From an uncultured Nitrososphaerota archaeon (GTDB lineage Archaea > Asgardarchaeota > Njordarchaeia > Njordarchaeales > Njordarchaeaceae): DNA of 20,000 nucleotides. Made by a program: the position numbers and the translations under genes. The stretch lies in the NCBI GenBank assembly GCA_964518475.1, contig CAZFGR010000001.1, positions 234,062 to 254,061 on the forward strand. Reading direction: 5' to 3'. Below the pieces are notes generated by a model. The model worked only from the letters and a program-made list of their open reading frames with translations, was not told where the DNA came from and ran no database searches. This document shows positions 1-11,504 of this stretch, one piece after another; the first letter of the stretch is position 1, and the number at the start of each line of letters is the position of its first letter.

Positions 1-377
1 CCTATCTTTAACCCCTTATTAACAAGAATATTTGTAGCTAATAGAATGAATGAGCTTTTGCCCACGTCTGTATAACCGAGAACGCTTATAATAAGAGGTT
101 TCACTCGTTTAGCTTGCTCTTCTATAAGTGTAATGGTATGATACCATTCCTCAGGAAATAGTTCGTTGCTGATGTTAGATATTTCACAGCCATTTATTAG
201 GAGTGTTGTATCTTCGAGAACTCTTGTTGGGAGAACTCGGCCTCTAGGAACTCTAACTTCTTTTTCAGCACCAATAATTGCTCCAAATATTTCCAGTAAT
301 CCCCCCCGGATAATTATAGAGCCGTCTGAAATACCGCGAATAAGGCATCTCTGCCCTTTTCTAAGCTTAGCTTCCAC
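1..377 (-). CDS. Clp1/Grc3-type polynucleotide 5'-kinase-like P-loop protein, N-terminal part (gene continues past the window start)
   Basis: Not in the ORF track because it runs off the edge. My minus-strand translation from GTG at 377 gives VEAKLRKGQRCLIRGISDGSIIIRGGLLEIFGAIIGAEKEVRVPRGRVLPTRVLEDTTLLINGCEISNISNELFPEEWYHTITLIEEQAKRVKPLIISVLGYTDVGKSSFILLATNILVNKGLKI. It has an N-terminal beta domain followed by a GxxDxGKS Walker A typical of Clp1/COG1341. The start codon is uncertain. Confidence 0.45.
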   Translation of the reverse strand, partial: MEAKLRKGQRCLIRGISDGSIIIRGGLLEIFGAIIGAEKEVRVPRGRVLPTRVLEDTTLLINGCEISNISNELFPEEWYHTITLIEEQAKRVKPLIISVLGYTDVGKSSFILLATNILVNKGLKI

Positions 378-562: not shown

Positions 563-712
563 TGGTGGGCCCGGGCGGATTTGAACCGCCGACCTCCCGG
601 TGTCTGAGACTATCTAGACTCCGAAGCTATTTATGACACTTGACACTTATTATTTTTATCAGGTGAGGCCTCTTATCAGCCGGGCGCTCTAGCCAGGCTG
701 AGCTACGGGCCC
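563..712 (-). tRNA. tRNA-Ile (anticodon GAU) with a 72-nt intron at the canonical 37/38 position; 3' CCA is genome-encoded
   Basis: The minus strand folds as GGGCCCG-UA-GCUC-AGCCUGGCUA-GAGC-G-CCCGG-CUGAUA[intron]A-CCGGG-AGGUC-GGCGG-UUCAAAU-CCGCC-CGGGCCC-A-CCA. All four stems are Watson-Crick. It is a GC-rich island in AT-rich DNA. Confidence 0.9.
602..673 (-). other. tRNA intron (72 nt) bounded by a canonical bulge-helix-bulge motif
   Basis: C32-A35 (CUGA) pair with intron UCAG. This leaves 3-nt bulges UA|A (5' splice site) and AC|A (3' splice site) separated by 4 bp. The intron contains the tandem AGUGUCA-AGUGUCA. Confidence 0.8.
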
Positions 713-2484: not shown

Positions 2485-2633
2485 TGAGTACTATTTTGCT
2501 AATCAGAAATTTTATTTACAGTTTTACTACCTTTTATTCTCTTCTAGTGACCTTGTAGTGTAAAGAACACTAGTAGTGCATACCCCATAACTAGCTATTT
2601 TCTTTTAGCCCTATTTTTAGGAGGTGAGGAAAA

Positions 2634-2903
2634 ATGAAAAATGATGAAAAACAGCAAGCTCTTGAGAATGCTAAGAAAATTTTAATAAAAATTTCCCGCG
2701 ATTTAAGTACTCCGAGAAATATTAGAAGAGCCGCCCGTAATGCTTTGCGGGAACTTGAAAACGAGGATTTGAGCCTAGCTTTAAGAGCCGCAAATGCTAT
2801 AGATATTCTTCAGGAAATCACTGATGATCCTCAGATTCCTCCTTTCGCAAGAACAGCTATTCTTGAGGCAATTTCTCTTCTGGATATGGTAGCGAAGGAA
2901 TGA
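2634..2903 (+). CDS. UPF0147 family protein (small helical protein conserved in archaea)
   Basis: The motifs STPRNIRRAARNAL...LSLALRAANAIDILQEITDDPQIPPFARTAILEAISLL match my memory of the UPF0147 pattern. A GGAGGTGAGG Shine-Dalgarno motif lies upstream. Confidence 0.7.
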   Translation: MKNDEKQQALENAKKILIKISRDLSTPRNIRRAARNALRELENEDLSLALRAANAIDILQEITDDPQIPPFARTAILEAISLLDMVAKE

Positions 2904-2970
2904 AGAACGAGAGAAATGAATAACACAGATAATACTTGGCAAACTTTTTCTTAAAAATTAAAATTAATTT

Positions 2971-3609
2971 TTATTCCCGAACTTCCGAGATTCCTAGCTT
3001 TTCCTTAGTCATTCTGGCTAGATTCTCAAGCTCGGCTTTATAGATTTCTGGAAAGACTCTATACAGCATGGCTAGACGAGCTGCTTCTTGGAAAACTCTC
3101 TTAACTCCTTTTCCATCGATAGCTATTGTTCTAAAGACTGGAAGTGGTCTGTCTATTCTTAAAGTTCTAAGAAGAACTGTTTCGGGTAATGCATCTGGCA
3201 AATCTCTTTTATTTAATGCAATAACTACTGGGATTTCACCCCATTTTTTACCAAGAAACTCTCGTAACTCGTTGATACTGTAAACGTTCTCATTTATGGC
3301 CTCGGGGTCACTATCAGCTACGAATACTACCGCATCGGCTCCCTCCAGGATAACTCTTCTTTGACGCTTATGTCTCTTCTGACCCGGTACGGTGTATACA
3401 TCAAACAATACTTTCCCTTTCGTTAATAGTGGCATATAATCAAAGTATAGAGTTCTGCCCGATGGGTCTTCTACAGAATGTATTCTTCCTTTTTTTAACC
3501 CTAGGATTCTATTATATAACGCTTTAACCATAGTTGTTTTTCCGGCCATCGAGGGGCCATAGAAAACAATTTTAAACCGATAGTAACCATGTCTGTCCTT
3601 ATATACCAT
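2971..3609 (-). CDS. MglA-like small GTPase
   Basis: The P-loop is GPSMAGKTT. Switch II is TVPGQ, with Thr in place of the Ras Asp, which is the MglA hallmark. ADAVVFVADS and NKRD motifs are also present. Confidence 0.8.
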   Translation of the reverse strand: MVYKDRHGYYRFKIVFYGPSMAGKTTMVKALYNRILGLKKGRIHSVEDPSGRTLYFDYMPLLTKGKVLFDVYTVPGQKRHKRQRRVILEGADAVVFVADSDPEAINENVYSINELREFLGKKWGEIPVVIALNKRDLPDALPETVLLRTLRIDRPLPVFRTIAIDGKGVKRVFQEAARLAMLYRVFPEIYKAELENLARMTKEKLGISEVRE

Positions 3610-3860: not shown

Positions 3861-4667
3861 TTAAAGAATGCGGGGCGCCAGTAGGTAAACTAATTCTGTT
3901 CCTCCACCTACCATGAAAGTCATCTTAAGTGGCATGTTCTTAGAATACTCTATTCTAACGACATCTGCTACCTTAGCGGCTCTTATGAATTTTCTAAGGA
4001 AGTCTAATGAGTATAAGGCCTCTGCATCATTTTTTATCTCGTATTGGACAACAGTGTCCTCTCGTTCTAAGGGTGCTACATATTCATAAAATCCACCTGT
4101 TTCGCTCTCAGCGATAAAACGCATTTCTTTTGTATCACTCGTAGTAACTAATCGTAGATCCTCTCCCACAACTTTAGCATCTGAGATTATGTCATTGAGG
4201 AAACTAGCAGGGGCGAACTCTACTAGTACGTCATACTGTAACTCCTTAACGTTTATCCTAGCTTCTTCAGGGATCTCTATAATTGGTAATGCGAAAGTCC
4301 TTTGTAATGATCGTTCGTCAAGGGTCCCCCTGAAGAAAGTGATTGCAAAGAATTGTCTATTTCTTTCCTTTCTGAGAGATAGTAATATGCTATCCTTTGC
4401 CTTTCCTCGTTGGAAAACTTTTTTCAACTCTCCAAAATTTACACCAATAACTATTGTGTCTCCATCCTCTGGGGGTTCAAAATCGTACTTGTGAAAAACA
4501 TTAGCCGGCATTTTTAATATAACCATGGCCACTCTTGATTCATCAATTGCAGAGAATTCGATACCATCTTCTCGAACATAGAAATTGCCCTCACTAATGA
4601 CACCAGATATTGCCGCGATAATCTCTCTTAGCGTTTTCGCTTCATCATAAGCAGCTTCCCATCTCAT
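3861..4667 (-). CDS. pcn: DNA polymerase sliding clamp PCNA
   Basis: The N-terminus ...LREIIAAISGVISEGNFYVREDGIEFSAIDESRVAMVILKMPANVF and the C-terminal YLLAPRI are PCNA-like. GGTGA lies 6 nt upstream of the ATG. Confidence 0.85.
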   Translation of the reverse strand: MRWEAAYDEAKTLREIIAAISGVISEGNFYVREDGIEFSAIDESRVAMVILKMPANVFHKYDFEPPEDGDTIVIGVNFGELKKVFQRGKAKDSILLSLRKERNRQFFAITFFRGTLDERSLQRTFALPIIEIPEEARINVKELQYDVLVEFAPASFLNDIISDAKVVGEDLRLVTTSDTKEMRFIAESETGGFYEYVAPLEREDTVVQYEIKNDAEALYSLDFLRKFIRAAKVADVVRIEYSKNMPLKMTFMVGGGTELVYLLAPRIL

Positions 4668-4977
4668 CTCTATTCACCGGTACATGATAATATTAACTAA
4701 ACACTGATCCAAATAAAGAGATAGAAAGATAAACATTAAACTTTTTTGGAGACTCTACACTAATCACCAGAAGATAGACACTAAAAGAACAAAGATATAG
4801 GGAGATATTATTAATGGAATATGCTCGTAAAGGTACCTTATTGTTTATCCTTCTTAATAGGTGGTGAGATAAGTTTGAAAGCTTTGATTTCGAGAGCCCA
4901 GAAAAATATGAAATAGCCTTACCTCCTTAGGTGCTTCTTTTTTCTCCCAATAGTTATCAGGTTGATTAGAAATTAGT

Positions 4978-5143
4978 GCCCGCCCCCGAGGTTTCCGTGT
5001 TCGGAATGGGAACGGGCGTGACCCCTCCCCTGTGGCCGCGTCCCCCTTTAAGGAGGACGCAGCAAGGGCCTTTCCCGCGCCCTCGCGGAGCGCGGTACTC
5101 GGTCCCTCGTGGGAGGGCTTAGCTTCCGGCCTCGGGGGCGGGT
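4978..5143 (-). rRNA. rrf: 5S rRNA gene, circularly permuted (3' half, then UUAAA cap, then 5' half) and flanked by a 13-bp leader/trailer helix
   Basis: The minus strand contains every 5S hallmark, but in swapped order. GCUAAGCCCUCCC, the loop E block GAGUA/GGGAAA and helix IV CCGCGC/GCGCGG come first. GGCCACAGGGGAGGGGUCACGCCCGUUCCCAUUCCGAACACGG comes last. The predicted mature segment is 5123 down to 4993 (131 nt, of which 126 nt is 5S plus a 5-nt cap). Confidence 0.8.
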
Positions 5144-5180
5144 TCGCCTGCCAACATCATCCATTACTACAGCTCATTCA

Positions 5181-5193
5181 TTTTTAAATTTTA
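5181..5193 (-). promoter_or_regulatory. TATA box candidate for the permuted 5S rRNA gene
   Basis: The minus strand reads UAAAAUUUAAAAA, about 38 nt upstream of the leader helix. A TATA box centred near -26 would put the transcription start near 5160 and give a leader of about 15-20 nt. Confidence 0.4.
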
Positions 5194-5248
5194 TTCTTCT
5201 TTTTATTCCTCAATCCAAATTACTGCTTGATTAGTGAAGGACTGCTGA

Positions 5249-5310
5249 AATCTCAGCCTGCCCATCGTCGCTCATCAATTCGCTCAAGGATGAATTCATC
5301 ATCGATGCCT
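5249..5310 (-). ncRNA. Candidate box C/D sRNA (weak)
   Basis: On the minus strand there is a C box AUGAUGA (5302-5296), a C' box UGAUGA (5277-5272) and a D box CUGA (5256-5253). A 3-bp terminal stem (AUC/GAU) is possible. D' is degenerate (GCGA or UUGA), and the C'-to-D spacer is 15 nt instead of the usual 12. Confidence 0.3.
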
Positions 5311-10880: not shown

Positions 10881-11504
10881 TCAACTTCTTTGTTGCTTTT
10901 TCTTTAGTTCTATCATTTTCGCTTGGATATAGTCAAAAATTACTTTTGCTAAAAAGTTGAATGCTTTGTCGATGTTTTCGCCAGTTTTTGCTGAAGTTTC
11001 TATATAGGGGATTGTAACTCCCACTTGTCTACTAGCAAGTTCGGCATATTTATAACCAGCTTCTGACGGAACTACGTCCTTTGCGGATCCTCTTAGATCT
11101 ATCTTATTACCAATAAGAACAAAGGGCCACATCCCCCCAGCATGTCTCCAGAATTCGCTTATCCATTTCGGCACATTATAGTATGTCTTAGGATTAGTTA
11201 CATCAAAGACAACAAGAGCTGCTCTAGCGCCCTTGTAATAGAGTGGACGTACTTGGTCGAAAGTTGGTTGGCCCGCTAGATCCCATAAGAACCAGTTGAT
11301 AATGACTTCACCGACCCGCTCATCATAATATCTCTGAGACTTTATGTAAAAGTCAGCACCGATTGTCTTTTTGTACTCATGTATAAAACTTTTTCCTAAG
11401 AATCTACGCGCGATAGAAGTTTTTCCTACTCCACCATCCCCTATCAAGACAACCTTTATCTGTACTGCTTTAGGAGATGCTTTTCTTTTTGTTATATCAG
11501 ACAT
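10881..11504 (-). CDS. Rab/Ras-like small GTPase
   Basis: All five G motifs are present: G1 GDGGVGKTS, G2 KKTIGADF, G3 WDLAGQ, G4 GNKIDL and G5 ETSAKTGENI. There is no C-terminal Cys prenylation motif; the protein ends KKKQQRS. Confidence 0.85.
   Translation of the reverse strand: MSDITKRKASPKAVQIKVVLIGDGGVGKTSIARRFLGKSFIHEYKKTIGADFYIKSQRYYDERVGEVIINWFLWDLAGQPTFDQVRPLYYKGARAALVVFDVTNPKTYYNVPKWISEFWRHAGGMWPFVLIGNKIDLRGSAKDVVPSEAGYKYAELASRQVGVTIPYIETSAKTGENIDKAFNFLAKVIFDYIQAKMIELKKKQQRS

Follow-up and report, generated by a model that had tools for sequence, protein, structure and literature searches.

How can a 5S rRNA be made from a gene whose 3' part precedes its 5' part? The question is raised by a locus in DNA from an uncultured Nitrososphaerota archaeon of the Asgard lineage Njordarchaeia (GCA_964518475.1, CAZFGR010000001.1:234,062-254,061), a stretch of 20,000 nt referred to here as the window. 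The locus is a GC-rich island at 5143-4978 on the minus strand (66% G+C versus ~38% across the window), flanked by a PCNA gene and an aspartyl-tRNA synthetase gene. At the Rfam gathering score (38 bits) no 5S was called in the window. A permissive Rfam scan of 4900-5250 revealed two sub-threshold 5S matches in reversed order: model positions 47-120 align to 5127-5054, inside a forced full-length match of 24.5 bits, and model positions 28-51 align downstream, to 5016-4993, with 21.1 bits. The split and out-of-order matches indicate that the gene is circularly permuted. A preliminary description of the locus had proposed that the permuted ends are cut by the tRNA splicing endonuclease (EndA) and ligated, possibly giving a circular 5S. 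Our analysis confirmed the permuted 5S gene and a covarying helix formed by its leader and trailer, and we have next to no doubt that both are real.

Read on the minus strand, which carries all features of the locus, the gene runs from the 3' two-thirds of 5S (5123-5052; Rfam model positions ~51-120) through a UUAAA loop (5051-5047) to the 5' third (5046-4993), which ends in ACGGAA and holds the match to model positions 28-51. The 3' two-thirds contain the GC pair after the AA bulge, the 3' strand of helix II, helices V and IV with the AGUAC...GGGAAA loop E region, and the 3' strand of helix I. The 5' third contains the 5' strands of helices I and II, and helix III with loop C (CCCAUUCCGAAC). 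The hallmarks of 5S were all found: loop C (CCCAUNCCGAAC), the AAGNUAAG segment and the loop E region (AGUAC...GGGAA). By reading of the sequence, the UUAAA loop closes helix I as a cap at the site where a normal 5S has its free ends. The gene thus has the marks of a permuted gene, a 3' part that precedes the 5' part and linkers at the natural ends that are loops of 3-5 nt. It has neither the collinear order of RF00001 nor a score of 38 bits, and is a permuted 5S rather than a standard RF00001 match.

The gene is enclosed by two complementary strands. The 13 consecutive Watson-Crick pairs reported in the preliminary description were found between the leader strand CCCGCCCCCGAGG (5142-5130) and the trailer strand CCUCGGGGGCGGG (4991-4979), shifted inward by one position; the outermost A5143 and C4978, which it had included, are unpaired. 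Its reading of the inner part of the motif held. The leader CCGG (5129-5126) is opposite the trailer ACGG (4998-4995), with three Watson-Crick pairs and G5126.A4998. AAG (5125-5123), a bulge or loop in the leader, and AAA (4994-4992), a bulge in the trailer with helices on either side, can be read directly from the sequence. The pentamer CGGAA, to which the leader CCGG belongs, is duplicated at 5128-5124 and 4997-4993. The trailer ACGG is also the basal 3' strand of helix III in the mature fold. An outer flanking helix and two 3-nt bulges on opposite strands with a 4-bp helix between them are the elements of the bulge-helix-bulge (BHB) motif. The precursor folds with a z-score of -6.45 and none of 200 shuffles folds as well; together with the same covarying architecture in ten loci, this places the motif beyond chance. 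A K-turn at the AAA bulge was ruled out by inspection: the sequence 3' of the bulge is CCUC in a Watson-Crick helix, with no tandem G.A.

A reference for the cut sites is provided by the tRNA-Ile(GAU) gene of the window (566-712, minus strand), which was recovered by Rfam alone (ARAGORN found no tRNA in the window) and has a 73-nt intron at 37/38 with a canonical BHB. The motif reads CCCGG/CUGA/UA^A ... UCAG/AC^A/CCGGG, where slashes separate its elements and carets mark the cuts, in agreement with the proposed rule that cutting takes place after the second bulge nucleotide. Its inner helix is only ~2 bp. The tRNA introns of related Njordarchaeia (L014 and L024; L numbers denote loci) read UCAG/AA^A/stem and CGGG/AA^A/stem. 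This AA^A-then-stem layout equals that of the 5S trailer, with the 5S at the intron position and the leader and trailer as the 'exons'. By the tRNA-Ile rule, the cuts are predicted at 5124/5123 (AA^G, 5' cut) and 4993/4992 (AA^A, 3' cut). Joining 4993 to 5123 restores the canonical sequence, ...CCGAACACGGAA-GCUAAGCC..., with no insertion or deletion, just as had been predicted. The product, G5123...A4993, is 131 nt long and, when opened at the UUAAA cap, is collinear with the Rfam 5S consensus along its entire length. The two cuts were predicted independently and are in register, giving a product without duplication or deletion.

Related loci were collected by scanning for the permuted order with the pattern GAAGNTAAG N{9,31} AGTAC N{70,100} CCCAYNCCGAAC in one genome per GTDB species and in JGI metagenomes. 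The GTDB-species scan gave five archaeal loci, all Asgard (Ca. Njordarchaeum guaymaensis, two Njordarchaeota metagenome-assembled genomes (MAGs), one 'Promethearchaeati archaeon' and one uncultured archaeon), and the JGI scan gave eight further archaeal contigs. Bacterial matches (L004, L007, L009, L010, L013, L015 and L017) were discarded as chance or as normal 5S genes downstream of unrelated sequence. L031 (449-619, plus strand) was left out as well: its leader and core are of the L019 type, its trailer is of the L011/L030 type, the two are not complementary, and co-occurring strains were most likely joined in assembly across their conserved 5S core, giving a chimera. The comparison set (alignment A1) holds ten distinct Njordarchaeia sequences from ~seven lineages, with PCNA identity down to 67%. 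None of the ten related loci is reported at the Rfam gathering threshold; a covariance model built from A1 finds every locus at 168-195 bits, compared with 24.5 bits for Rfam.

The leader/trailer helix covaries in these relatives, where the preliminary description had suggested looking. All ten permuted Njordarchaeia loci keep the helix in register, and 15 of its 16 aligned pairs are compensatory. A loss of helix and bulges at loci with the permutation, which that description had named as evidence against its proposal, was thus not seen among them. Its length is 11-16 bp and its sequence varies widely. For the outer and central helices together, 85.5% of the cells in A1 are paired, versus 27-54% with the partner slid by 1-3 columns. 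The 15 pairs changed on both sides all lie within the 16-pair outer helix, and none of 500 shuffles attains the observed value on any measure. The register is invariant in all ten loci: in the leader the helix directly adjoins CCGG (0 nt), and in the trailer 3 nt separate NCGG from the helix. The CCGGAAG columns of the leader, which include the central strand CCGG and the AAG, and the CGGAA columns of the trailer are 100% conserved; the trailer bulge is AAA in nine loci and AAU in one. Relative to the predicted mature ends, 6 nt (CCGGAA) separate the helix from the 5' end and 1 nt separates the 3' end from the helix, and this spacing is also invariant. The 6/1 asymmetry is exactly the 4+2/1 stagger of a BHB, and we read it as a BHB with the same topology as in a pre-tRNA. 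In addition, neither CGGAA copy varies although the sequence of the helix beside it drifts, which argues for a BHB; otherwise one copy would be a dispensable single-stranded linker.

The 5S itself is equally well preserved in its pairing. The canonical helices (40 pairs) have 98.5% of their cells paired, versus 44-58% when slid by 1-3 columns, and the helices of the 3' part are 97-100% paired. Changes on both sides were found in 17 pairs. None of 500 shuffles reaches the observed value on four of the five measures; for further pair types, 21 of 500 do. This pairing and its compensatory changes indicate a functional 5S and not a pseudogene.

A pathway can be proposed on this basis. A dedicated promoter would give a precursor of ~190 nt consisting of the leader, the 5S 3' part, the helix I cap, the 5S 5' part and the trailer. 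An A/T-rich TATA-like box, AUAAAAUUUAAAAA, lies at 5181-5194 (minus strand), ~38 nt upstream of the outer helix, and similar boxes occur in orthologous loci; TTTAAAAA or TTTATAAA is present 30-45 nt upstream of the leader helix in 11 of the 11 loci listed. From general knowledge of archaeal promoters, the box is presumed to be the promoter of an independent pre-5S transcription unit. Its position implies that the leader helix is transcribed and fits an independent transcript with both helix strands. The trailer tail CACUAAUUUCU (4968-4978, minus strand) has a short U-run, and most orthologous loci have T-rich runs after the trailer helix. The U-run may be a transcription stop, a tentative assignment.

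In this precursor, the 13-bp helix of leader and trailer would play the role of the anticodon stem in an intron-containing pre-tRNA. The leader CCGG and the trailer (A)CGG would form the 4-bp central helix of a relaxed BHB, with the 5S in the place of the intron. EndA would cut after the second nucleotide of each bulge, and an RtcB-type ligase would join A4993 to G5123, restoring the universal ...CGGAA-GCUAAG... strand in the helix III / loop B region. The predicted ligation junction is CCGAACACGGAA followed directly by GCUAAGCCCUCC. The leader (GAGGCCGGAAGCUAAG) and trailer (ACGGAAACCUCGG) would be discarded, and a leader-trailer by-product with CCCCCGAGGCCGGAA followed by ACCUCGGGGGCGGG is predicted. 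The end product would be a 131-nt covalently closed 5S with helix I still capped. Judged from the sequences, the best explanation of the locus is that an EndA-type enzyme cuts at the predicted sites and that the 131-nt circle is then ligated, which we hold to be rather probable.

The motif also suggests how such a gene could have arisen. CCGG is self-complementary, and a duplication of CGGAA, as in a tandem 5S duplication, would automatically provide the central helix and two AA-containing bulges. The broader proposition is that the 5S in Njordarchaeia ribosomes is a covalently closed circle whose gene makes it the 'intron' of a mini BHB substrate, an arrangement that arose in Asgard archaea, probably by tandem 5S duplication, with the self-complementary CCGG of the duplicated CGGAA creating the central helix. 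In our judgement this proposition is evenly poised.

Several features of the motif weigh against cleavage and ligation. The preliminary description had called the inner flanking helix (h') weak; it was found to be absent, since by inspection the leader CUAAG does not pair with the trailer CCGAAC. The leader (5') site therefore lies in a bulge-helix-loop (BHL) and not in a true bulge, and the motif is of the relaxed helix-bulge-helix (hBH)/BHL kind. The central helix has just three Watson-Crick pairs, its fourth pair being G.A in eight loci and G.U in L005 and L014. The trailer CGG doubles as the base of helix III, so that the central helix competes with the mature fold; the trailer base of the fourth pair covaries with its helix III partner (U-A in eight loci, A-U in two; columns 137/151). 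RNAalifold and minimum free energy (MFE) folding pick other conformers, and RNAalifold pairs the leader CGGAAGC with the 5' half. In constrained folding at 37 °C, the BHB conformer costs 2.3 to 6.6 kcal/mol more than the unconstrained MFE. Compared with the best of two rival constrained conformers at the same temperature, it is between 1.8 kcal/mol below and 6.2 kcal/mol above. These gaps shrink at 75 °C. In such models the BHB conformer is accessible, not preferred.

The relaxed character of the motif, the other part of the earlier claim, fits the reported Asgard enzyme. Relaxed BHB/BHL motifs are cut only by loop-bearing (αβ)2 or ε2 EndA, and Asgard EndA has been reported as (αβ)2 with an L1/CSL loop (PMC5829648). 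Cleavage of a relaxed motif would fit the EndA type given for Asgard archaea in the literature.

The alternative that survives best, although we consider it unlikely, is that the RNA is cleaved or trimmed and not ligated. The 5S would then be linear and permuted, with a capped helix I and with ends at or near the helix III AA bulge. Its fold would hold both ends without a covalent bond, and a precedent for a 5S that is permuted in the final RNA is known from brown-algal mitochondria (PMC4267664). However, the conserved and precise BHB stagger and the presence of both CGGAA copies would be left unexplained. Ligation or circularization is the fate of the known archaeal EndA products (tRNA exons, introns, pre-16S/23S), which also counts against a linear permuted 5S.

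The linear form draws further support from a divergent permuted 5S in L022 (5690-5848, plus strand), which has the same sequence as L033 (2525-2678, minus strand), where the flanks are longer. This gene is low in GC (48%) and has the same break point, with leader CUGGAAG and trailer ACGGAAA; its cap is UUCG, and its helix II is covaried throughout. The custom covariance model matches it with 58.5 bits, the match being limited to positions 17-154. No leader/trailer helix in the BHB register was found in L022/L033, and the RNAduplex energy is no better than in shuffles. A permuted 5S may therefore work without a BHB-type helix and ligation may be dispensable, which speaks against the proposed pathway and somewhat lowers our confidence in ligation.

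Other features of L022/L033 were also inspected. Its best stem, GGGUUUCUG with CGGAAAUCU, is a 9-bp helix with three G.U pairs that does not resemble a BHB and overlaps the mature 3' end. A fossil of tandem duplication was rejected: the leader and trailer resemble their own 5S halves no better than shuffles do (p ~0.4-0.65). Only the last 14 nt of the leader look like a longer duplicate, being a near-copy of the mature 3' end in a fixed register (UUCUGAACCUGGAA versus UUCCGAACACGGAA, 11/14). A U6 run lies 8 nt past the mature end. No Pfam domains were found in the neighbouring genes. The best named homologue of a neighbouring 1421-aa protein, 34% identical, is from Helarchaeota, which is weak taxonomic evidence. 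The permutation may be wider than Njordarchaeia.

Less likely again is that no processing takes place and that the GC-rich helix stays on the RNA, as a stalk that sticks out from helix III / loop B and has the free ends at its tip, a reading that the preliminary description had also considered. The covariation is equally expected of a retained structural helix, and the MFE and RNAalifold folds show a native-like 5S plus a stalk. Large 5S insertions exist in Halococcus, which counts in favour of a retained stalk. On the other hand, the stalk would leave unexplained a 6-7-nt single-stranded linker (CCGGAA or CGGAAA) that is 100% conserved. The helix, at 11-16 bp and with freely drifting sequence, behaves as a discarded processing stem would, and the arrangement mirrors that of tRNA splice sites in the same lineages.

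It is improbable that the circle is an intermediate from which re-opening of the helix I cap yields a 5S of the conventional linear form. Such a pathway is that of the permuted tRNA genes of Cyanidioschyzon merolae, as cited in PMC4267664, and archaeal circular pre-16S is re-linearized (PMC12918454). The caps, however, are stable, short loops (UUCG, GUAA, UCU, UUAAA) that lack a conserved nuclease signal, helix I is fully paired up to the loop, and 5S would functionally need no free ends. The full set of caps seen is UUAAA, UCU, UUCG (three lineages), GUAA, GUUA and UUUAU. Under them helix I is ~10-14 bp long, with no conserved sequence or flanking signal. The unconserved caps and the variable length of helix I suggest passive closure and not a processing site. 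This argues that the cap stays intact and that the ligated product is a true circle rather than a re-opened intermediate. In the proposed pathway it would be the circle, and not a re-opened form, that enters the ribosome.

That the locus is an assembly artefact or a pseudogene, with the real 5S a canonical gene elsewhere in the genome, deserves hardly any credence: it is true that all sources are MAGs or metagenome contigs examined at the locus rather than the whole-genome level, which weighs against our interpretation, that L031 is clearly chimeric across the 5S and that the differences between the window and L001/L002 all lie inside the 5S (in L002 also at 4866), but the same permuted architecture occurs in independent ENA, NCBI, JGI and Logan assemblies, PCNA/Arf synteny is conserved, every helix shows compensatory changes, and a pseudogene would not retain 98.5% pairing.

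The allelic variation is a matter of its own. The window shares 99.97% identity with contigs of GCA_054385735.1 and of an ENA assembly. Over 18.8 kb, it differs from L001 only inside the 5S gene, by one substitution at 5021 and in the cap region 5047-5055; the extra difference of L002 at 4866 is outside the gene. The cap is CCUCC-UUAAA-GGGGG in the window and CUCCC-UCU-GGGGG, 2 nt shorter, in L001/L002. The predicted circle of 131 nt is that of the window allele, and the L001/L002 allele would give 129 nt. The 5S core of the window is that of a different species (L012/L018/L020), whose flanks are only ~76% identical. The shared core could be due to strain-level hypervariability of the cap, gene conversion between species or mixing of conserved rRNA in metagenome assembly.

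The homologues of the window PCNA are, where named, from Njordarchaeia only, and PCNA and an Arf-like GTPase are syntenic with the 5S in most related loci. In the window there are two Arf/Ras-family small GTPase genes, typical of Asgard, the first of which makes a pair with the PCNA gene (2971-3609, 3861-4667 and 10881-11504 for these genes, all minus strand). The PCNA-Arf pair is near the permuted 5S in most Njordarchaeia loci, in varying order and strand. A synteny walk along PCNA homologues found no 5S near PCNA on contigs from lineages of 58-63% identity. In L024 (PCNA identity 61%; 2560-3366 plus flanks), no 5S of any kind was found within ~2.5 kb upstream and 5 kb downstream of PCNA, indicating that the position of the 5S is not fixed. 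L024 represents a more distant Njordarchaeia lineage and keeps the order L11-L7Ae-S28e-L24e-UPF0147-PCNA-Arf.

Next to the intron-bearing tRNA-Ile, at the window edge and ~4.6 kb from the 5S, is a 477-aa Clp1-family (PF16575) polynucleotide kinase-like gene, of which the window holds the N-terminal part (1-377, minus strand) and which continues upstream of it (1248-2681 in L001). Clp1 is an RNA 5'-kinase family tied to tRNA splicing in eukaryotes. The introns of the tRNA-Ile orthologues are ~20 nt (L014) and 65 nt (L012) long, compared with 73 nt in the window, and intron length thus shifts quickly.

If the proposed pathway is correct, the locus would be the first natural case of an rRNA gene that attains its canonical strand order only through RNA ligation. 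It would also be the first permuted 5S to be cellular (non-organellar), would bring BHB/EndA/RtcB processing to the one archaeal rRNA thought not to use that route, and would place 5S among the few RNAs with permuted genes (tRNA, tmRNA, 23S). A circular-5S ribosome in a thermophilic Asgard lineage is predicted, with a bearing on RNA stability at high temperature and on the role of the 5S ends in 50S assembly. There is a consequence for genome annotation as well. The permuted 5S genes (window 4976-5145 and related loci) are below the Rfam threshold, and under standard annotation Njordarchaeia MAGs would therefore be scored as without 5S, which affects 'high-quality' calls under the Minimum Information about a Metagenome-Assembled Genome (MIMAG) standard.

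In the literature library that we searched, no permuted archaeal 5S was found; the only reports on the topic were a paper on organelles and a 2012 survey of circular RNA in Sulfolobus. Each part of the proposed mechanism is known from other systems, and its application to 5S in Asgard archaea is unexpected. The closest parallel to the splice sites is the archaeal tRNA intron, such as that of the window tRNA-Ile. It has the same order of stem, 4-nt strand and NN^N on the 5' side and of 4-nt strand, AA^A and stem on the 3' side. Excised tRNA introns are circularized, and here the 5S takes the intron position. In contrast to tRNA introns, the 'exons' (leader and trailer) would be the waste and the 'intron' the functional RNA, and the inner helix is missing.

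That archaeal 16S and 23S precursors are circularized through a BHB is established, and there is a report of circular 23S inside ribosomes (PMC12918454). The same leader/trailer helix with a BHB is found in these precursors, where EndA and a ligase give circular rRNA (PMC12918454; PMC7758197; bioRxiv 10.64898/2026.03.23.713588), and in some archaea a circular or permuted form of 23S is the ribosomal one. Genes for pre-16S and pre-23S are collinear and have their natural ends joined, whereas here the gene is permuted and ligation would repair an internal position in helix III / loop B. According to the 2026 paper, circularization covers the archaeal 16S and 23S 'but not 5S rRNAs' (PMC12918454). 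Low-level circles of canonical 5S were reported in Sulfolobus and Halobacterium, without validation by reverse transcription PCR (Danan et al., 2012; PMC3326292). They are likewise covalently closed, 5S-sized archaeal RNAs. Those circles join the helix I ends of a normal gene, are of low abundance, possibly represent a degradation step, and involve no BHB.

The only permuted 5S described is mitochondrial, with another break point and no ligation (mtPerm-5S of brown algae and other stramenopiles; PMC4267664). It has the same hairpin-closed helix I with the ends moved elsewhere. The mitochondrial RNA is broken at the three-way junction (α/γ) and remains permuted, with neither a BHB nor ligation. 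The break here is instead in the β domain, at the helix III AA bulge, and no match to the Rfam mtPerm-5S model was reported in 4900-5250 at E<=10.

The permuted tRNA genes of C. merolae share the 3'-half-first order and the short linker at the natural ends (Soma et al., 2007). A leader/trailer BHB is present there too, and cleavage and ligation restore the natural strand continuity. The resulting circles have to be opened by RNase P and tRNase Z. Permuted tRNA genes have been reported in Thermofilum pendens as well. Unlike these tRNA genes, the 5S described here has a stable capping loop without sign of removal, and the circle is likely to be the end product.

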